This document shows positions 3,950 to 54,495 of a stretch of DNA of 64,000 nt, one piece after another; position 1 is the first letter of the stretch, and every line of letters begins with the position of its first letter. Under the pieces are notes generated by a model. The model was not told the DNA's origin, did not search any database, and worked only from the letters and a program-made list of their open reading frames with translations. The position numbers were made by a program, and so were the translations under genes. This DNA comes from Escherichia virus TH15. The stretch lies in the sequence record MT446392.1. The stretch is one strand, 5' to 3'.

Positions 3950-3984
3950 TGTATCTTCTCCAATTTATTTGAATAACACAATTG

Positions 3985-3992
3985 TATTTATA
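3985..3992 (-). promoter_or_regulatory. T4-type late promoter TATAAATA for collagen-like/hoc-like operon
   Basis: Plus strand TATTTATA = minus TATAAATA, 36 nt upstream of ATG at 3949. Confidence 0.7.
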
Positions 3993-4041
3993 CTGTTTAC
4001 AAGTTAAAAATTCTATGTTAGGATAGCTTCACTAACTCAAC

Positions 4042-4245
4042 ATGAGAATCATTATGGATAAGGTTAAAGTACATTTTTTACATGAATCGGGTATGACATT
4101 TATTGAAATCGCCAAGGTATTGGGCGGGACTGCTAAAGAAATGGCAAAGGCATGGGTTGATGTAGAACACGCCAAAACCAAATTTAAAGCCAAAGAGAAA
4201 GTTGTGTATCGTAAACGTTTGAATAACAAAAAGGTGAAGAAATGA
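4042..4245 (+). CDS. hypothetical small basic protein
   Basis: 67-aa ORF with ATG; position corresponds to T4 24.3/24.2 region. Confidence 0.4.
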   Translation: MRIIMDKVKVHFLHESGMTFIEIAKVLGGTAKEMAKAWVDVEHAKTKFKAKEKVVYRKRLNNKKVKK

Positions 4246-4505
4246 CATTCGCAGAAGAACTACGCCAAATGGCCAAAGAGTCACAAGATAAAGTTGCAAA
4301 TGACTTTATTGCTATATTTCGCAAAGTGGCTATTGCCGCCGCCGAGAATGGCAAAGATGCTGTTAATATGGCAGTTTCTGAAAAAGAGTATGAAGAAGGA
4401 AACCGCGCAAAGATATCTGAATTTCTGCGAGCAGAAAAATTTACATCTTTTACCTGGAATTATGACTGGCAAGATAACAAACCAATGCTGTATGTAAAAT
4501 TCTGA
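4242..4505 (+). CDS. hypothetical protein
   Basis: 87-aa ORF, ATGA overlap with upstream ORF. Confidence 0.45.
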   Translation: MTFAEELRQMAKESQDKVANDFIAIFRKVAIAAAENGKDAVNMAVSEKEYEEGNRAKISEFLRAEKFTSFTWNYDWQDNKPMLYVKF

Positions 4506-4508
4506 CCT

Positions 4509-4538
4509 TTTTGCTTCAAATAAAATTGTGGTATAATG
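4509..4538 (+). promoter_or_regulatory. T4 middle-type promoter: MotA-box-like TTTGCTTCA plus TATAAT -10
   Basis: TGCTT at 4512-4516, TATAAT at 4533-4538, upstream of rnlB. Confidence 0.5.
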
Positions 4539-4634
4539 GTTCTAGACCCTTTGAGACTATTAATTCCTTTCAGAGAAAGAAAGTATAGTGGGTCTAATTT
4601 ATAATGATATTTATAACATCAAAAGTGAGAGAAT

Positions 4635-5639
4635 ATGTTTAAGAAATATAACAGCCTTGAAAATCACTATAACAACAAGTTCATTGAAAAGATTCGCCTG
4701 CAAGGCTTCACCAGCGGTGAATGGGTAGCTCGTGAGAAAATTCATGGTACCAACTTTTCATTAATTATTGAACAAAATAATGTGACATGTGCGAAACGCA
4801 CTGGACCTATCCTACCTGCAGAAGATTTCTATGGCTACGAAATTGTACTCAAGAACTATGCAGATTCCATTAAAACTGTGCAGAGACTTTTACAGGATAT
4901 TAATTACCAATCATACCAAATTTATGGTGAGTTTGCTGGTACAGGTATCCAGAAGAATGTGGATTATGGCGACAAAGATTTCTATGTGTTTGATATCCGC
5001 GTTACTAAGGAAGATGGCTCTGAATCTGTTTTGACTGATTCATTGATGGAAGCCTTCTGTATTATCCATAAATTTAAGGTTGCCCCACGCCTGGCTACGG
5101 GTAGTTTTGAAGACTTGATTAAGCTCCCTAACGACCTGGATTCTGTGGTTCCTGATTACAATTTTACAGTAGATAATGCGGGTTTGACTACCGCGAATAC
5201 CACCGATTTTGACGCAAAGGTTGAAGGTAAAGTATTCACTGCAGAAGGGTATGTTCTTAAACCTGATACTCCTGCCTGGTTACCTAATGGTGAGCGCGTA
5301 GCGATTAAATGTAAGAACTCTAAATTCAGCGAAAAGAAAAAGTCTGATAAGCCTATCAAGGCTGCTGTTGTGTTGTCCCAGGAAGACCTGGACATTTTAT
5401 GGAAGTTTACCGATTATGTGACTGTTAACCGTATCAATAATGTTATCAGTAAAATTGGGGAAGTAACGCCAAAGGATTTTGGAAAGGTAATGGGTTTGAC
5501 TGTTCAAGATATTTTGGAAGAAGCGGGTCGGGAAGGCCTTGAATTAACCCAAACGGAAAATCCTGTTGAAGTTAAAAAGCAACTCATTGCAAATGTAAGA
5601 GATACATTAAGACATGTTTGGATTGCATTAATTAGTTAA
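4635..5639 (+). CDS. rnlB: RNA ligase 2
   Basis: 334 aa; MFKKY..LENHYN.KFIEK...[18 protein letters not shown]...[16 protein letters not shown] matches T4 Rnl2 as remembered; nucleotidyltransferase KxHG lysine motif. Confidence 0.92.
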
Positions 5640-46829: not shown

Positions 46830-46841
46830 TTCAAAAAGGGG

Positions 46842-46871
46842 GTATACAAGCCCCCTGCTTTAAGGCATAAT
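46842..46871 (+). promoter_or_regulatory. early promoter GTATAC / CATAAT overlapping a G5/C5 hairpin
   Basis: Read directly. Confidence 0.4.
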
Positions 46872-46910: not shown

Positions 46911-47216
46911 ATGAAATTCATCATCAACCTGGCGCTTGTTGACTTTGATAAAACTGGTAATTTCGCATCTGCTGAAAATATGATTCGCAACACTAAGTTC
47001 AAAGTGCAAGTCCAGCAGGCGGTAGCAAAAGAGTTCTTTACTGATAAATTAACCCACGTTGTCAATCACCTGAATGTGCAAGTTAAATTCACTCGTAAAG
47101 CAGAAACTACAGTTGAATTTGATTTTGAATGTCGTTACCATGATGAATATGTTCGCCGCATCCTTAATATTGTATCTGATGAACTTTACTATGGTGTGCA
47201 GGAAAACAAAATCTAA
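46911..47216 (+). CDS. hypothetical protein
   Basis: 101 aa. Confidence 0.5.
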   Translation: MKFIINLALVDFDKTGNFASAENMIRNTKFKVQVQQAVAKEFFTDKLTHVVNHLNVQVKFTRKAETTVEFDFECRYHDEYVRRILNIVSDELYYGVQENKI

Positions 47217-47220
47217 ATCA

Positions 47221-47256
47221 GTGTACGCTTTAACGGGAACATGATAGTATGTTCCC
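47221..47256 (+). promoter_or_regulatory. early promoter GTGTAC / TAGTAT with -10 inside 8-bp inverted repeat GGGAACAT/ATGTTCCC
   Basis: Read directly. Confidence 0.45.
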
Positions 47257-47292
47257 TGGATAATAAAACATTAACCAACTGAAGGAAATACC

Positions 47293-47886
47293 ATGAATAC
47301 TTTAAAGAAACTTGTTGAATTCATCCGCTCCAAACTGGGTACTGCAATGGCACAAAACCTGTCTATTGAAGACCAATATACTAAAGCGGCAACAACCCTG
47401 ATTGACAAGATTACTGAGCTCCAGACTGCCCACGTTAAGTCTGTTAATGAAGAAAAACGCATCCGCGAGTTAGCGAATGAAAAAGACCAGCTCGCTGCTT
47501 CAAAAGAGCGTGAAATCCGTAAACTGATTGCTGATGGTGCTGATGTTCAGGTCCATGCTAAACTAGGTCTCCTGTATCGCCACACGGCTAAACAACTTCG
47601 TAAGAAGGCAGATGATTATGTTGAAATGCGTAATGAAATTAAATTGAAAGTTAAAGAGCTGGATGATTCTCGTCAGGAACTAGCTGTTAAACTGGAATAC
47701 ATCCGCGAAACTCGTAAGGTATCTGCCCTGGGTATTGCGACTGCAGATGATGTTGTTGAAATCGCTGCATTGACTAAGATTGATATTGAAGACACTCTGA
47801 TGCGTGTTGAAACCTTCAAAGGCCCACAGGTTGGTGTGGATACCACATCCGCTGACATTGAAGAATACATCAATTCACTTAAGTAA
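47293..47886 (+). CDS. hypothetical coiled-coil protein
   Basis: 197 aa, charged heptad-rich. Confidence 0.55.
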
Positions 47887-47929
47887 GATAAAAGGGGGCT
47901 TTGCCCCCTAATTGGGAGAGGAGAATATT

Positions 47930-48484
47930 ATGACTTCATACGATAATCTTATATCAAATGTAGAATGGTTTGGCGGCAGTGGTCTTGCCACTGAAACTAA
48001 TACAGTTCTTTATAGAATCCGTGGTGACCTAGGTTATTCCAATGATTTCTTAAGAAGAACAACTAGTCGGGGCGATACTACCAAATTACCTTTTATTTTT
48101 GCTTTGGCTGAAGACCTTTCTTTCGCAGATGCCTTGGAAATTATTGACGTGAATCTGGGCATTCAACGAGTGGAATTCGCTGGACTACGTTATTCAGTGT
48201 ATGCATTAAACGACCCTAGCGATTATAGACAACTTATTGATGCAGACGATGATTATCATTTAGTGTGTTATTTGATGTTAGAAAATGGTGACCACTTTGG
48301 AATGGTTGACCGCCGTCCAACTTACTCTGATATTAAAAATTATGATAAAGATGAGCTTACTATTTTGGCTGCTGAGTATACATCAGAGAGTCGTAAGCAA
48401 CAACGGAAGCTTAATCGTTTTATTACTGAATGTCGTGAATATGCTAAAGGGGTTCAAAATGCGAACGCTATATCTGCCAAGTAA
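47930..48484 (+). CDS. hypothetical protein with C-terminal F-I-x-E-C motif
   Basis: 184 aa from ATG 47930, SD GGGAGAGGAG. Confidence 0.5.
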   Translation: MTSYDNLISNVEWFGGSGLATETNTVLYRIRGDLGYSNDFLRRTTSRGDTTKLPFIFALAEDLSFADALEIIDVNLGIQRVEFAGLRYSVYALNDPSDYRQLIDADDDYHLVCYLMLENGDHFGMVDRRPTYSDIKNYDKDELTILAAEYTSESRKQQRKLNRFITECREYAKGVQNANAISAK

Positions 48485-48818
48485 ACCAGAAAAATTTGTA
48501 TACGCGGACAAGATTGATAAAGACCTTATGCCTCCATTTGGAGCTTTGTCCATGTGCATCGTTGGGGTTATAATGATGGTGCTTTGTGGGGATATGGATA
48601 TCATTAGTGTCGGAGTCGCCTGGACACTAATAATCGCAACTCCTTTTATTACAGTCCTGAGTATGATTTTGATAAATGTGTGGCATCAAAATCATATGAA
48701 TAAAGGATATCGTGGACGAGTTAAAGAGTGGGAACAAAAATGTGTTTCCCTACAAAAAGAGCACAAAATTAAATGTGCAGAAGAATTTATCAAGGAGGTT
48801 CGCAATGGAACGGCCTAG
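48459..48818 (+). CDS. small membrane protein (F-I-K-E motif at C-terminus)
   Basis: 119 aa from ATG 48459; hydrophobic helices. Confidence 0.5.
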   Translation: MRTLYLPSKPEKFVYADKIDKDLMPPFGALSMCIVGVIMMVLCGDMDIISVGVAWTLIIATPFITVLSMILINVWHQNHMNKGYRGRVKEWEQKCVSLQKEHKIKCAEEFIKEVRNGTA

Positions 48819-49158
48819 TCTTGCACTACATGTTTATCAATTGGCTGAATATGATATTGGTGCCAATTTATTATTAGGGATTGTTACCGCTATGCTCGGG
48901 GGCTTGGTTGGCCTGGTAATGACCACAGTTATGGCTGCAATCGAGGGAGTCATGCCTATTGAGATGGGCTTCTTTATGATAATTGCTCCGGCTGTTGTAG
49001 CCTATTTTATCCCGGTTGTGTATGATATCTGTCACACAAACACCTTGAATGCTCCCATCCGTAAGAGATACGCTTTGGCAATGGCTGAGTATAATAAGTT
49101 CCTGGACAAAACAAAACGTAATGAACTTGAAACCTTTATTAAGGAATGTAAATCATGA
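48805..49158 (+). CDS. small membrane protein ending FIKECKS
   Basis: 117 aa from ATG 48805, SD AAGGAGG. Confidence 0.5.
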   Translation: MERPSLALHVYQLAEYDIGANLLLGIVTAMLGGLVGLVMTTVMAAIEGVMPIEMGFFMIIAPAVVAYFIPVVYDICHTNTLNAPIRKRYALAMAEYNKFLDKTKRNELETFIKECKS

Positions 49159-49445
49159 ATAAAATTGAAATCGCTATCCCTAAGTATTATGATGAGAAAT
49201 CTGCAGAAAAAGCTATCTATTCTCTTCTAAATAAGACTTCTGAAATTGAAACACATTGTGAAGAAATCGCTGATGAATATGGCATTGAATTCAGCACCGG
49301 CGATTACGGCACAGGTCGTACATACCACCCAGTCGGTTATGAATGCTCTGAATGGTTTACCCATCATATTGAAGCCAATGGCGGTCGGGTTGAAAATGGT
49401 GTTGTTACCGTTGGTGCTTGGGTCTCCTCTTCTGAGATGTGTTAA
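49155..49445 (+). CDS. small acidic protein, member 1 of tandem W-x-SS-x-x-C family (ends WVSSSEMC)
   Basis: 96 aa. Confidence 0.55.
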   Translation: MNKIEIAIPKYYDEKSAEKAIYSLLNKTSEIETHCEEIADEYGIEFSTGDYGTGRTYHPVGYECSEWFTHHIEANGGRVENGVVTVGAWVSSSEMC

Positions 49446-49454
49446 GGAAATGGT

Positions 49455-49736
49455 ATGATGAACGATTACAGTAAAAATAAAGAACTGGCCAACGCAGTAA
49501 ACGAAATCCATAAAGCTATTCGGCGCGCCGAGGAAATTGCAGACAAATATGAGACTCATTTTAATATATACCCTGCTCGCGGTATGGGCGGTGACTATTA
49601 TTCTCCTGGCGCCTTGAAAGCTGACCTTGCTCATTGGGAAAACTACGGTGAAGCCCAATACGCCATTGTTAACCAACATGACTACACAACGGACCTTGAA
49701 AAAGGTGGTTGGGTTTCCTCTTCTTCTGAATGTTAA
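49455..49736 (+). CDS. small acidic protein, family member 2 (ends WVSSSSEC)
   Basis: 93 aa. Confidence 0.55.
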   Translation: MMNDYSKNKELANAVNEIHKAIRRAEEIADKYETHFNIYPARGMGGDYYSPGALKADLAHWENYGEAQYAIVNQHDYTTDLEKGGWVSSSSEC

Positions 49737-49744
49737 GGAATTAT

Positions 49745-49942
49745 ATGTCCCGTGAATTAGATTGTGCAATCCGTACTGCTGCGGCAGCTATTGAAAACGT
49801 TATCCAGATTTGCAAAGAAGAACGCGAAGAAGCTGATATCTATATTGACGGTCAGCGTAATCTGGAACAACATATTACGCTTTATAATGGTTGTATTACT
49901 ATTAGTGGTACCTCTTGGGTGTCCTCCTCTTACGAATGCTAA
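49745..49942 (+). CDS. small acidic protein, family member 3 (ends WVSSSYEC)
   Basis: 65 aa from ATG 49745 with SD TAAGGAA. Confidence 0.5.
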   Translation: MSRELDCAIRTAAAAIENVIQICKEEREEADIYIDGQRNLEQHITLYNGCITISGTSWVSSSYEC

Positions 49943-49950
49943 GGAAATAA

Positions 49951-50178
49951 ATGACTACTAAAACTGTTAAAGAAATTGAAGACCAAATCCGTGCACTAAT
50001 CTGTGAAGGTGAACAGCTGGCCGATAAAACTGGTGAATACTTTCATGTATATGCTGACAGTCTTCAACGATATATTCCTGCGGGCTGTCCAGAATATGAA
50101 GAATATGACTGGATTCGCGGTGATTATGGTATCCCAGAAGGTAAAGGTTTCTGGTACACCTCCTCTATGTCTTGCTAA
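49951..50178 (+). CDS. small acidic protein, family member 4 (ends WYTSSMSC)
   Basis: 75 aa. Confidence 0.55.
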   Translation: MTTKTVKEIEDQIRALICEGEQLADKTGEYFHVYADSLQRYIPAGCPEYEEYDWIRGDYGIPEGKGFWYTSSMSC

Positions 50179-50187
50179 GGAATAAAA

Positions 50188-50412
50188 ATGTCTGATATTA
50201 ATGAATTAGAAAAAGCAGCTCTTGAACTGGCTGCGCTGTATAAGAAAGTTAAAGATATGGCTTCTGCTCAAGATTTCGGTATTGAGCTCGATGATTATGA
50301 TGGCGAAGTTCGTCTTGAAGACTGGTTGAACAGCTCTTGTTATGGTGAAGAAGCTGGTCGAACCTTCGTTGCTCACCCGGATGGTAAAATCTGGTACCCG
50401 AGCAGCTGCTAA
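50188..50412 (+). CDS. small acidic protein, family member 5 (ends WYPSSC)
   Basis: 74 aa. Confidence 0.55.
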   Translation: MSDINELEKAALELAALYKKVKDMASAQDFGIELDDYDGEVRLEDWLNSSCYGEEAGRTFVAHPDGKIWYPSSC

Positions 50413-50514
50413 AATTATCACAAGGATGTGATAGGAGGACTTATGCACAAGATTTAGTATACAAGTCTAAAGAAACATAGTATCATTATCTCGTCAACTA
50501 ATGAGGAAATCAAT

Positions 50515-50745
50515 ATGTGGTATTACGCCCCAATGGCTGATGAGCCTGTGAAAATTAGTCGCGCTAAGTTTACAAAGATTTACGGCCTCGTTTATAAGAA
50601 GTCTGATTACGGTGTTCGTTTTGAAGATGCACACTGTATCAACGACCCTTATAATGAAGACCTCTATGGCAAATTGGTTCCTATCGTTAAGGGGTCCGCC
50701 TCTGAGATGATAGATGAATCTAATATCTCTGCTGCTGAAATTTAA
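50515..50745 (+). CDS. hypothetical protein
   Basis: 76 aa. Confidence 0.45.
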   Translation: MWYYAPMADEPVKISRAKFTKIYGLVYKKSDYGVRFEDAHCINDPYNEDLYGKLVPIVKGSASEMIDESNISAAEI

Positions 50746-50763
50746 GTTACTGAGGAAAATATT

Positions 50764-51723
50764 ATGATGTTAGTTATTGGCTCTCGCGCATTACATAACG
50801 CCGGTCTGATTGAAAGTAAGAAAATTGAAAACTCTGATTGGGATTTTATCGCTGACCAGGGTTCCTGGAACAGCTTTAAAACCCAGATGATGGGGCAGCA
50901 TGTTCATGTGGATAACCCAGATGTGCAAGCTTTTAAATGTATGCACAATGGTAAAGAAACTTATTTTGAAGCGTACATCGTCCGCGCACTGACAAGTGTT
51001 CGTGAGTTGACTGATGAGTTGCAAGAGGAAGATTTTACTTCCAGTTATCGTCTGCTCAAATATGCAAAGGCAAATATTCAGAAAGACCGTCTATCTGGTT
51101 TTTACTGGGCGACCCCTGATATTTGTCTGGCAATTAAATTGTCTCATCGTTACCTGAAGAACAATCCATTCTTCCTGAAGACAATGAGCCATATTAATTA
51201 CCTTCGTAATAAGGGTGTTGTTCTTAATGATGAACTACAAAAAATCATGCAACAACGACAGGCAGAAACACTGTCATATAGTCACCCTAAACTAGACGTG
51301 GGCAAGAAAACTTTCTTTAATGATACAATCTATACCCTTGACCATGACTCCATCCACGAGGCCGTGGCGCTTGCTGATAAGCCTGCATATAAGTTCTATA
51401 TGAAGGATGATTCAGAAGTCATGACCTCACGTGAAAAATTTGAAGCACTCCCTGATGTTATTAAACTGGCAGGGGTTTATGAAGAAGCATGTGTGCTCGC
51501 TCTGGAGCGTTCGCAGGTTCCTAACGAGTTTAGTATCCCGGCCAGTCATAGCTTCCATATGGCTCTGGAAAAAGTCTGCACCTCCATTACTTCTGGATGG
51601 TTTCGTGAGTATGCCTGGGAACATTACCAGGATGTGGTTAATATGTACAACACCCTGGGTCGCGAAGACTATGTTAAACGTTTCAAGGCTAACCAGCATT
51701 TAATTCGTCCTTTTTCAAAATAA
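50764..51723 (+). CDS. hypothetical protein (largest uncharacterised early ORF; weak GS...DxD nucleotidyltransferase-like motif near N-terminus)
   Basis: 319 aa; motif VIGSRALH...SDWDFI. Confidence 0.55.
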   Translation: MMLVIGSRALHNAGLIESKKIENSDWDFIADQGSWNSFKTQMMGQHVHVDNPDVQAFKCMHNGKETYFEAYIVRALTSVRELTDELQEEDFTSSYRLLKYAKANIQKDRLSGFYWATPDICLAIKLSHRYLKNNPFFLKTMSHINYLRNKGVVLNDELQKIMQQRQAETLSYSHPKLDVGKKTFFNDTIYTLDHDSIHEAVALADKPAYKFYMKDDSEVMTSREKFEALPDVIKLAGVYEEACVLALERSQVPNEFSIPASHSFHMALEKVCTSITSGWFREYAWEHYQDVVNMYNTLGREDYVKRFKANQHLIRPFSK

Positions 51724-51725
51724 GT

Positions 51726-51755
51726 GTGTACAACCAAATGGGGCTATGACATAAT
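51726..51755 (+). promoter_or_regulatory. early promoter GTGTAC / CATAAT
   Basis: 18-nt spacer. Confidence 0.4.
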
Positions 51756-51782
51756 GGTCCCACAATCAATGAGGAAAATATT

Positions 51783-52469
51783 ATGAACGGTCCTAAAACT
51801 TTTAATAGTCAAGCTCGTGCAGTTGGTGGTTTTGCACATAACGTACAAAATGACCAAATCAAAAATGAACCAATGTTCTTTAACTGTGATTTGAGTTTTG
51901 CTTGGGATAATGGTGGTCCAATCACTCGTAGCTTTATTGCCAATCTCCCAATTGATTGGACTAATCAACATGTTGTGTTTGATTCACGTGCGCATATGTT
52001 AATGCCAGGTTGGTATCCAGCTATCCCTGGCTATCATCATGATGATGTTCCTCGTCCACCCATTCCAACAGGACAACATTTTATTACTGCAGGACAACCT
52101 GATTATGACAATCCTCGCTATTTGTCTGAACACATTCTTGGTCTTGTTAACGCTGATGTGTGCCCTACCCATTTTGCTACAGGCGAAGCCACCTTTAGTG
52201 AAATCCCAGAAGGTGAACTGATTTATCGCCAATGGCATAAAGAAGTTCTGGCTAAAATTGAATCAGGTGAATTAGAGCAATGGGAAGCTCCTGACCGCAC
52301 ACTCCTGCAGTTTAATTGTCATACCTGGCATACTGGTTCCCAGACAGTGCGCAATGGCTGGCGTTGGTTTGGTCGTGTATCTCGTAACACTGACCGTGTT
52401 AAAAATATTACCAATGAAATCCGCGTTAATGCCCAAGTATATCTGGAATTCCCTATGGAGGGATGGTAA
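51783..52469 (+). CDS. hypothetical protein
   Basis: 228 aa. Confidence 0.55.
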   Translation: MNGPKTFNSQARAVGGFAHNVQNDQIKNEPMFFNCDLSFAWDNGGPITRSFIANLPIDWTNQHVVFDSRAHMLMPGWYPAIPGYHHDDVPRPPIPTGQHFITAGQPDYDNPRYLSEHILGLVNADVCPTHFATGEATFSEIPEGELIYRQWHKEVLAKIESGELEQWEAPDRTLLQFNCHTWHTGSQTVRNGWRWFGRVSRNTDRVKNITNEIRVNAQVYLEFPMEGW

Positions 52470-53044
52470 TGATGTATGAACCCGGTTGCATGGGTGATAT
52501 GAAAGGTCCACAAGGATGTGCAGGTATTCCAGTTCCAAGAGATGAATTTATGATTACCAAAAGATATTGGGCAAACCTTGATGATGGTGATGAAGGAATC
52601 AAGGTGGAAAACGTTGATTGGTCGCACTGTAACCGTCATATGAAAGAGCTTTTGATTGAGGAATATAAAATGAAGCACATCGTTAAAGGTTGGCAACCAG
52701 AACCACATAAAGAACAAACACCTGACCCATTGATTTGTTATAGTGAAAAATATGGTTTTCGTACATGGAGCGATGAATATGACAAGTTGGTGTGCTCCAG
52801 GTTCTATGTTTGGATGGGAATACTATTTTTTCCAATCCTGTGGTTTTTCCTGACAACGAAAAATGACTTGCCAATTTGCGTATTCGGGGCAGCAGTATCT
52901 GCGGCCATTGCAGGTATTATCGCATCATTTTTGTGGACCTCTGTTATTGAAGTACCTTTTCGTATTTCTAAAGTTAAAAAGGTATATGACAATATCACAA
53001 AGAAAAATACATTAAACTCTTTTATTGAGGAATGTCGTAAATGA
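52463..53044 (+). CDS. hypothetical membrane protein ending FIEECRK
   Basis: 193 aa; C-terminal hydrophobic helices. Confidence 0.5.
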   Translation: MVMMYEPGCMGDMKGPQGCAGIPVPRDEFMITKRYWANLDDGDEGIKVENVDWSHCNRHMKELLIEEYKMKHIVKGWQPEPHKEQTPDPLICYSEKYGFRTWSDEYDKLVCSRFYVWMGILFFPILWFFLTTKNDLPICVFGAAVSAAIAGIIASFLWTSVIEVPFRISKVKKVYDNITKKNTLNSFIEECRK

Positions 53045-53277
53045 GTATTGCAATTTATATTAAATCAGAGTCATGTGATTCTTACCTGTATTCCTATGAT
53101 AAAGGTACGCCCGAAGTTGAAATCAAAGATGATTTAGAAATTGACCTGGACTTGTTCCGCCCGATTTCTGAATACAGAGTTCAAACTTCTAGTAGTGAAT
53201 CGCCATCAACAGAAACACGTATTGAAATTATTATGGCCGAAATCTTTAAAAAATCTTGGGAACGTGATGATGAGTAA
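53041..53277 (+). CDS. hypothetical small acidic protein
   Basis: 78 aa; ATGA overlap upstream. Confidence 0.4.
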   Translation: MSIAIYIKSESCDSYLYSYDKGTPEVEIKDDLEIDLDLFRPISEYRVQTSSSESPSTETRIEIIMAEIFKKSWERDDE

Positions 53278-53728
53278 GAAAAACGTGGTGAAAGAATTAT
53301 CTGCTGGCATTATTTTCATGACTGAAGATAAAGAGTTATTCATGGGTCGTGTGACTGGTTCTCGCAAACCGGGTATGCCTGCACATAAATGGGATATCCC
53401 TAAGGGTCATGTTGAAGCCGGCGAATCCCCGATTGAAGCGGCTATGCGTGAATGTGAAGAAGAAACAGGCTTTACCCAGTATGACCCGGCATTCTTAAAA
53501 GACCTAGGCGAGTTCCGTTATTCAGATAACAAAAACCTTCACCTGTTTTTGTACACGGTCCCGGTCGAGCATGAGCAATTCAGACATAGTAAATGCTCCG
53601 CATATCATACATTCCCGGATGGTAGTTCGGTCCCAGAGTTTGATGCATTTGCTCTGATTAAACCGAGTCAATGGCAATACGTAATGGGTAAATCGATGTA
53701 TAAGGTTTTGACTCAAATTTTCGGATAA
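53267..53728 (+). CDS. nudE: NudE Nudix hydrolase
   Basis: Nudix box GHVEAGESPIEAAMRECEEETGF; precedes e as T4 e.1/nudE. Confidence 0.8.
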   Translation: MMSKKNVVKELSAGIIFMTEDKELFMGRVTGSRKPGMPAHKWDIPKGHVEAGESPIEAAMRECEEETGFTQYDPAFLKDLGEFRYSDNKNLHLFLYTVPVEHEQFRHSKCSAYHTFPDGSSVPEFDAFALIKPSQWQYVMGKSMYKVLTQIFG

Positions 53729-53739
53729 TAAATACACAT

Positions 53740-54495
53740 ATGAATTATCTAAAAATATATGAATCTTTAATAGTATCTGCTATTAAAAGACCTCTTACAC
53801 AAGGATACACCGAAAAACATCATATTTTACCGAAATCGATGGGTGGTAATGATTCTATTGATAATTTAGTTACCCTTACCGCCCGTGAACATTTTATTGC
53901 ACACTTATTATTGGCAAGAATTTTTAAGAATCGCGAAATGTGGTCCGCTGCATATATGATGGCTTCAACAAGTCTAACTAACTCGGATAGACATAGATGC
54001 TCGTCACATTTATATGAATTATTGCGTAAACAAGCGTCGGTATATAATTCAGGTGAAAATTCTCCAAATTGGGGAATAAAACGTTCTGAAGAAACACGAT
54101 TAAAAATGTCAATTTCAAAAATGGGTATCAGGAATCCAATGTACGGTATTCCACAATGTTTGGAACACTCTCATAAAATTAGCCTTGGTGTTACCGAAGC
54201 TTTTAAAAATCCAGAAATGAAAGAACGCCACCGTCAAAGTGTTTCTGGAGAGAATAATGGGTTTTATGGAAAAAAACATTCCGAAAAAAGTTTGGAAAAA
54301 CAGCGGAATACAAAACGGAAAGGATTTCCTTGGGACAATTATTTGGAATTGTACCCAATTTGGGTTTCATTAAATTGCCCCAAGCATCCAACATTCACAA
54401 ATGAACTTGTTAAATTGGGATACCCCAAAAAGAAGCTTGTTCGAATAGTGGAAGAGTTTAAAAATGAATATATTCGAAATGCTACGCATAGATGA
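53740..54495 (+). CDS. HNH homing endonuclease (Mob-like) with NUMOD3 repeats
   Basis: 251 aa; [34 protein letters not shown] motif; ENSPNWG / NPMYG / [11 protein letters not shown] repeats; overlaps e start by 32 nt. Confidence 0.8.
53740..54495 (+). mobile_element. free-standing HNH homing endonuclease gene inserted between nudE and e
   Basis: Same as CDS. Confidence 0.6.

Follow-up and report, generated by a model that had tools for sequence, protein, structure and literature searches.

PspB and PspC of Escherichia coli and LiaI of Bacillus subtilis are membrane proteins that recruit or regulate PspA and LiaH, respectively. In the MIM-MIT pairing of ESCRT-III, a short C-terminal helix serves as a modular docking element. 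Here we describe a phage locus that may combine features of this kind. We analyzed a stretch of 64,000 nucleotides (nt) of Escherichia virus TH15 (sequence record MT446392.1), below called the window. In it, a homolog of phage T4 gene e.6 (47293..47886, plus strand, 197 amino acids [aa]) is followed on the same strand by four open reading frames (ORFs), O1 (47930..48484), O2 (48459..48818), O3 (48805..49158), and O4 (52463..53044), whose products share a short C-terminal tail. Judged by profile and predicted fold, the e.6 product is a member of the PspA/Vipp1 (IM30, ESCRT-III-like) family, and we propose it as the hub of a module. A preliminary description of this DNA had presented the four ORFs as membrane-protein paralogs with a C-terminal F-I-x-E-C motif, placed around an array of small-protein genes. 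The ORFs exist at these coordinates and end as it said; it missed a stronger linkage, that to e.6 upstream.

What was already known of these genes is that they are ORFans and, for the family of e.6 (phrog_1203), that it resembles PspA. The one prior mention of this likeness concerns gp125 of Kuttervirus SeF3a, which was proposed as a PspA homolog and as a candidate for countering abortive infection (Int J Mol Sci 2022;23:8917, PMC9409062). That protein belongs to the same family as e.6 of the window, and the inference drawn is the same as ours. The passages of that paper dealing with gp125 treat the PspA-like gene alone; a tail-bearing membrane gene, a C-terminal motif, T4 e.6, and e.2 to e.5 go unmentioned in them.

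Results

Positions 47000-54000 of the window are 88-94% identical at the DNA level to VR26, SP18, and TH40, which places it nearest to Gaprivervirus, among T4-like phages. Annotated relatives and the T4 reference identify O1 to O4 as genes of the early block between e.6 and nudE, and this same-strand position is conserved for the groups of all four. T4 has homologous genes with the same tail in the same order, and there the series e.6, e.5, e.4, e.3, e.2, nudE is contiguous. In the window, by contrast, an insert of 3.3 kb separates e.3 from e.2 and holds a five-gene array, a DUF7275/DUF7277 gene, and others. The four ORF families match PHROGs 2604, 2330, 2203, and 8788.

The tail is a signature of nine residues, Φ-[E/N/D]-x-[F/W]-[I/V]-x-x-C-[R/K]. 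It reads LNRFITECR in O1 (nt 48410-48436), EEFIKEVR in O2 (nt 48780-48803), LETFIKECK in O3 (nt 49126-49152), and LNSFIEECRK in O4 (nt 53012-53041). The motif of the preliminary description is therefore present, with two corrections: in O1 it is followed by 15 further residues, which overlap the start of O2, and O2 has FIKEV, with Val in place of Cys. The Glu of F-I-x-E-C is not conserved across tails. In T4, the corresponding sequences are FVKECR in e.5, FVKESR in e.4, and FVIDCR in e.3. Within the window, the tail is limited to the O1 to O4 genes. Among all six-frame ORFs of at least 50 aa in the 64-kb window, we found three with [FW][IV]xxC[RK] at most 20 residues from the C terminus, against 0.43 expected from residue shuffles, and all three belong to the set O1 to O4. 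The tail motif exceeds chance.

We also examined the e.6-to-nudE regions of ten further groups in annotated genomes: Dhakavirus, Mosigvirus, Marfavirus, a Klebsiella Jiaodavirus-like phage, Winklervirus, Karamvirus, Biquartavirus, Ceceduovirus, Pseudotevenvirus, and SP18. Proteins that end in such a tail, soluble ones included, fall into at least 15 clusters with no BLAST link between them, and a genome encodes one to eight tail-bearing proteins. In a logo of 111 non-redundant tails, the signal reaches positions -3 and -2, which lie outside the search pattern.

The tail-bearing genes are found on one side of e.6. We collected 41 loci from IMG/VR, anchored on e.6, with e.6 identities of 50% to 99%. 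Over the 8 kb that precede e.6, none of 685 plus-strand ORFs carried the C-terminal tail, whereas 134 of the 744 downstream did. The first ORF after e.6 was tail-bearing in 39 of the 41 loci, and each locus had one to five tail genes. The loci share ancestry, so the counts do not represent independent events. Across these loci the association is strict, with the tail borne only by genes that directly follow e.6.

What kind of protein is e.6? The window protein is 74% identical to T4 e.6 and matches phrog_1203 with an E value of 2e-83. A phmmer search over 1.84 billion representatives returned a compact e.6 family of proteins of about 200 aa. A profile built from 26 family members found eight distinct Vipp1/PspA chains of the PDB (E values of 1e-4 to 6.5e-3), colinear from residue 1 to about 141. 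The Pfam model PspA_IM30 (PF04012) was matched by 4 of the 26 members, with a best E value of 8.9e-10, and the Pseudotevenvirus homolog scored 23.6 bits with it, the gathering cut-off being 33.9. The AlphaFold2 model of e.6, with a predicted local distance difference test (pLDDT) score of 84, has helices at 2-22, 25-80, 86-145, and 151-159. The N-terminal helix is short, 25-80 and 86-145 pair in a long hairpin, and the C-terminal helices are short again, as in an ESCRT-III-type fold. When this model was searched with Foldseek, the top eight hits were all Vipp1 or PspA (best E value, 9e-4), with CdvB2 and Synechocystis PspA lower; on 6zvs_A it superimposed with a root mean square deviation of 3.2 over 122 columns. 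Profile, Pfam intermediates, and predicted fold all indicate that e.6 is a PspA/Vipp1 (ESCRT-III-like) homolog. This e.6 protein, long listed as a conserved hypothetical protein or mislabeled "host specificity protein," occurs in about 1,110 phage records.

The same arrangement recurs in a second phage family, the Ackermannviridae. In Kuttervirus GEC_vB_GOT, Agtrevirus pSal-SNUABM-02, and Klebsiella phage RCIP0012, a PspA-like gene is directly followed by one to four transmembrane (TM) proteins. These end in ...VESIVDRARTR, IESIIRRARGK, IDSIIKQARSR, IYAIVENARGRRR, IDHIVNKARGRRK, and IDIIVSQARSRRQ, a pattern that can be written as Φ-[D/E]-x-I-[I/V]-x-x-A-R, with I for F and A for C. In these loci, the generalized 9-mer gave six matches, all in TM genes after the PspA-like gene, compared to 8 of 1,335 six-frame control ORFs. 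Only some Kutterviruses have the PspA-like gene. Comparison of phage bering with GOT revealed a clean indel of 1,410 bp (3969-5378 in the GOT stretch, 2043-2056 in the bering stretch) whose content is the PspA-like gene plus the tail-bearing TM gene and nothing else. It lies between conserved flanks beside a DNA ligase gene, and it is absent from bering and many others. Kutterviruses gain or lose both genes together, as a single cassette of 1.4 kb.

A short sequence at the end of overlapping genes could be conserved as DNA rather than as peptide. The motif would then be a by-product of an AU-rich element, a Shine-Dalgarno (SD) sequence, and a spacer, all serving the next coupled gene (TTTATTAAGGAATGT...ATGA), or else a recombination junction for cassette shuffling. 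Many motifs do lie 17-26 nt ahead of the next start, with codons 3 and 4 spelling AAGGA, GAGGA, or AAGGAGG, and in O2 the tail codons AAGGAGGT double as the SD of O3. SD-like cores are found in 61% of tails followed by at most two residues, in 22% of those followed by three or four, and in only 8% of those followed by five or more, yet the F, I/V, C, and R positions are kept whatever the frequency of the core. The distance from the motif to the next start spans 17-238 nt, and the motif persists at 40-238 nt. Synonymous codons vary freely (TTT/TTC, ATT/ATC/ATA, TGT/TGC, and six Arg codons), and replacements are conservative in the protein, not in the DNA, as in TTT to TGG (F to W) or TGT to GTT, ATT, or ATG (C to V, I, M, or L). 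In e.5 and e.2 proteins, the tail is the most conserved part. Since synonymous codons vary, substitutions are protein conservative, and distance is irrelevant, we conclude that the motif is selected as a peptide. The free positions of the motif alone are recruited for translational coupling. Tested in this way, coupling or a ribosome-binding site as the reason for the conserved positions was largely refuted and we rejected it; an origin of the motif in nucleotide constraint or in recombination is very improbable.

The proteins that carry the tail have little else in common. O2 is homologous to T4 e.4 (119 aa; BLASTP E value, 2e-16), O3 to e.3 (117 aa; 2e-8), and O4 to full-length e.2 (193 aa; 1e-14, with 34% identity over 102 aa), all E values coming from a small database. 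O1 (184 aa) sits at the position of e.5 and matches JS98 gp131; tail excepted, it has diverged from T4 e.5 past recognition by BLAST. Alignment of the O1 family with the e.5 profile by hhalign (95% probability, E value of 3e-8, 126 columns) identifies it as a diverged e.5. By Kyte-Doolittle hydropathy, O2, O3, and O4 have two TM segments apiece and O1 has no hydrophobic segment, in line with the three ORFs said earlier to have hydrophobic helices. Since the charge counts of O2 to O4 obey the positive-inside rule, both termini, tails included, are predicted to be cytoplasmic (N-in/C-in); in O4, a cytoplasmic N-terminal domain precedes the TM segments. Neither e.6 nor O1 has hydrophobic segments, which places them in the same compartment as these tails. 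The start of O4 at 52463 is backed by a conserved N terminus, YEPGCMG.

Did these genes arise from one another? The e.3 and e.4 proteins are full-length paralogs (hhalign, 94%, 101 columns), so "membrane-protein paralogs" is right for O2 and O3. It fails for the others: O1 is soluble, O1 and O4 align by the tail only, and all four do not form one paralogous family, because only e.3 and e.4 align beyond the motif. More generally, e.2, e.5/O1, and a further TM family (C17) align to e.3 or to each other over the tail only, in 13-35 columns, with probabilities of 46-91% for informative pairs; control families (e.6, the array, and the 78-aa family described below) stayed under 3%. In a 13-sequence alignment of the e.5-position family, tail residues F164 and C168 are the sole invariant ones besides Met1. 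Likewise, the e.2 tail LNxFIEECRK is invariant among members with 41-46% identity, in which the TM segments have been almost wholly replaced.

One could view the four genes as independent accessory ORFans (superinfection-exclusion, holin-like, or toxin-like) and the tail as a relic of tandem duplication without a common function. The e.3 and e.4 genes are true tandem paralogs, the annotations read hypothetical or membrane protein and in one case "holin," and T4 tolerates an interrupted e.2. A relic would decay, however, and the tail is instead what families with nothing else in common conserve best; nor was there a significant match to a holin, toxin, or defense-effector model. We regard this explanation as unlikely. 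Among the models searched, O1 to O4 had no Pfam hit at an E value of 0.1 or below and nothing significant in NCBIfam or PADLOC, where the best scores, to models of two-TM abortive-infection or defense effectors, were E values of 0.013-0.014 and not significant. The "holin" label, given to an e.2 homolog in record PQ341120, has no holin match in Pfam, PHROGs, or NCBIfam, and phrog_2203 is described as "membrane protein" only. Other labels of that record (VirB3, MotA-ExbB, and ubiquitinyl hydrolase) were not reproduced and were dismissed. A word-indexed protein search retrieved only close relatives, and the AlphaFold2 model of O1, from a 26-sequence alignment, reached a pLDDT of only 38. Homologs of e.2 carry the precomputed label PF26896.

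The e.2 gene of T4 deserves a comment of its own. In the T4 reference (NC_000866; 3492-3961, minus strand), its reading frame runs through two in-frame stops, a TAG after codon 102 and a TAA six codons on, and the conserved C-terminal part ends ...NLNNFITECRKLK. The final 36 codons (MFIEMPW...) form an ORF equal in length to phrog_35580, and the ATG of nudE sits within the Glu-Cys codons (GAATGC) of e.2. Given the two stops and the conserved continuation, e.2 of reference T4 looks like a recently interrupted gene. The window, in contrast, has an intact e.2 of 193 aa.

The tails themselves are short polar helices with a narrow hydrophobic stripe. Being net polar, they favor protein docking over membrane insertion; insertion as an amphipathic helix is unlikely, as the hydrophobic moment is modest (p 0.04-0.36). 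An essential redox or metal-binding role of the Cys is unlikely as well: this position holds Val, Ile, or Ser in e.4, Ile, Leu, or Met in another TM family, and Ala in the Ackermannviridae. We tentatively propose that the tail is a cytoplasmic docking peptide that may join soluble and two-TM partners to the PspA-like e.6, or all of them to one common complex. The tail could instead be a homotypic or heterotypic oligomerization helix, a degradation or regulation tag, or the place where some host factor docks, for example FtsH/HflKC, an insertase, or a protease. It would then control the tail-bearing proteins themselves, with e.6 a mere neighbor. A motif on one to eight proteins per genome fits any shared recognition element, and the polar helix with its narrow stripe and the failure to find e.6/tail co-variation are compatible with such a role. 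But this leaves unexplained why the tail is confined beside a PspA-like gene in two phage families and why both genes come and go together in Kuttervirus, and we consider it doubtful.

The preliminary description had suggested that the membrane-protein genes and the array form one co-transcribed membrane plus soluble module. The array (49155..50412, plus strand) consists of five tandem genes for small soluble proteins ending in W-x-S-S-x-x-C (phrog_899). O1 to O3 lie immediately upstream of it with the overlaps reported: 26 nt between O1 and O2, 14 nt between O2 and O3, and 4 nt (ATGA) between O3 and the first array gene. The idea holds insofar as, of the 28 loci that have W-x-S-S-x-x-C genes, 27 have the first of them right after a tail-bearing gene, an arrangement found also in Providencia phage PSTCR6. 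Tail genes occur without the array, however, in 13 of the 41 loci, in T4, and in Klebsiella phage Roth16. Because these 13 loci and T4 keep the tail genes without it, the array is a separable, dispensable insert. Relatives of the array genes, with their terminal Cys, are found in many genera, nearly always directly after a tail-bearing gene. Genes within 47930-50412 overlap or are at most 9 nt apart. Promoter-like matches (29 versus a background of 24.9) and terminator-like matches (8 versus 5.7) were at background. Co-transcription of 47930-50412 is plausible from this layout.

Several other features surround these genes. An ATGA couples O4 to a gene for a 78-aa protein with an acidic C terminus (...SWERDDE; 53041..53277, plus strand; cluster C3). 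Among the 12 annotated genomes compared, 7 have such a gene right behind the e.2-like one. Between the array and e.2 lie a gene for a DUF7277 plus DUF7275 protein (50764-51723; E values of 1e-27 and 3e-76) and one for a phrog_1843 protein (51783-52469), a conserved pair found there in several genera. One record names them nucleotidyltransferase and phytanoyl-CoA dioxygenase. A 251-aa ORF with an HNH-type motif (53740-54495) lies between nudE and lysozyme gene e and overlaps the start of e; since SP18 and VR26 lack it at that position, a homing endonuclease has probably inserted there. Two near-identical GC-rich hairpins (AGGGGGC...GCCCCCT) occupy gaps flanking the e.6 region, at 46837-46856 and at 47893-47909, the latter between e.6 and O1. 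On the coding strand, no T-run comes after either hairpin, and the second scores as terminator-like on the minus strand only. They may act in RNA processing, RNA stability, or recombination.

Discussion

Restriction of the tail to genes that follow a phage PspA suggests a membrane-maintenance module that has not been described in phages. Its members would be early proteins that have only a common tail to unite them: a soluble one, encoded in the place of e.5, and differing numbers of proteins with two TM segments in N-in/C-in orientation. The two-TM proteins could serve as membrane anchors or adaptors for e.6, as LiaI does for LiaH and PspB/PspC for PspA, while the e.5-type protein may be a soluble adaptor or regulator. 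Such a module might stabilize the host inner membrane and the proton-motive force early in infection, and it would possibly counter abortive-infection effectors that depolarize the membrane. More speculatively, T4-like and Ackermannviridae phages may encode a self-contained ESCRT-III/PspA membrane-remodeling system. In it, an e.6 core would be directed by diversifying adaptors, both two-TM anchors and soluble e.5-type proteins, through one docking helix, keeping the membrane energized and providing a broad counter-defense against membrane-disrupting abortive-infection effectors. This wider picture is possible and, in our estimate, somewhat unlikely.

Several observations speak against tail docking to a PspA-like e.6. 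The e.6 protein of the window itself has no match in Pfam, and a 10-sequence e.6 profile compared with the single E. coli PspA by hhalign gave no significant result. Residues of e.6 showed no convincing co-variation with tail position +5. Gene adjacency could reflect inherited gene order rather than interaction. All 41 loci had been chosen for containing e.6, and among phages lacking it, tails were checked in Kuttervirus only. Compared with the e.5/O1 profiles, the Ackermannviridae partner reached 2.5% in hhalign, with only the tails in register, so homology to e.5 is not supported; since profile similarity is not significant, the likeness of the tails across families is at motif level only and may be convergent. 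Finally, O2 to O4 have no sequence relation to the Pfam models of PspB (PF06667), PspC (PF04024), or LiaI, and PspB, PspC, and PspD of E. coli lack the tail.

The literature offered little on these genes. Full-text searches for T4 e.2 to e.6 by gene name returned nothing usable. A term search of a comparative Psp paper (PMC11237479) found neither "virus" nor "bacteriophage," and the passages that a term search returned from an ESCRT-III review (PMC7619361) contain no phage-encoded homologs. Within the searchable literature, we did not find the shared C-terminal signature, its restriction to genes after a PspA-like gene, its recurrence in the Ackermannviridae, or the two-gene cassette. With these, T4 e.2 to e.6, ORFs to which no function has been assigned since the genome was annotated, gain a testable organization, a PspA/Vipp1-type protein with signature-marked partners. 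The module is conserved in two phage families or more, and in Kuttervirus it shows the behavior of a mobile cassette. Should the tail dock PspA, no partner-recognition motif would have been defined earlier for any viral ESCRT-III-like protein, and its sequence would offer an easy way to find such partners in other phages. Such docking would also explain how lytic phages protect the membrane from depolarizing defenses, which bears on host range and phage therapy.

How does this locus compare with known systems? The likeness to MIM-MIT is one of analogy only. A protein with an MIT domain is missing, the sequences are not similar, and the direction is reversed: in the phage, the motif would sit on the partners, not on the ESCRT-III-like protein. 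The bacterial Psp and Lia systems (reviewed in PMC5333519, PMC11237479, and PMC7619361) come closer. There too, a PspA/IM30 gene stands beside genes for small inner-membrane proteins with cytoplasmic C-terminal segments. LiaI-LiaF-TM proteins have four TM segments and O2 to O4 have two, and the phage module has no PspF-like regulator. What it has in addition is a soluble protein with the tail and, per genome, as many as eight or so tail-bearing partners. By analogy, then, the phage locus may be a Psp/Lia-type arrangement of a PspA protein and its membrane partners.

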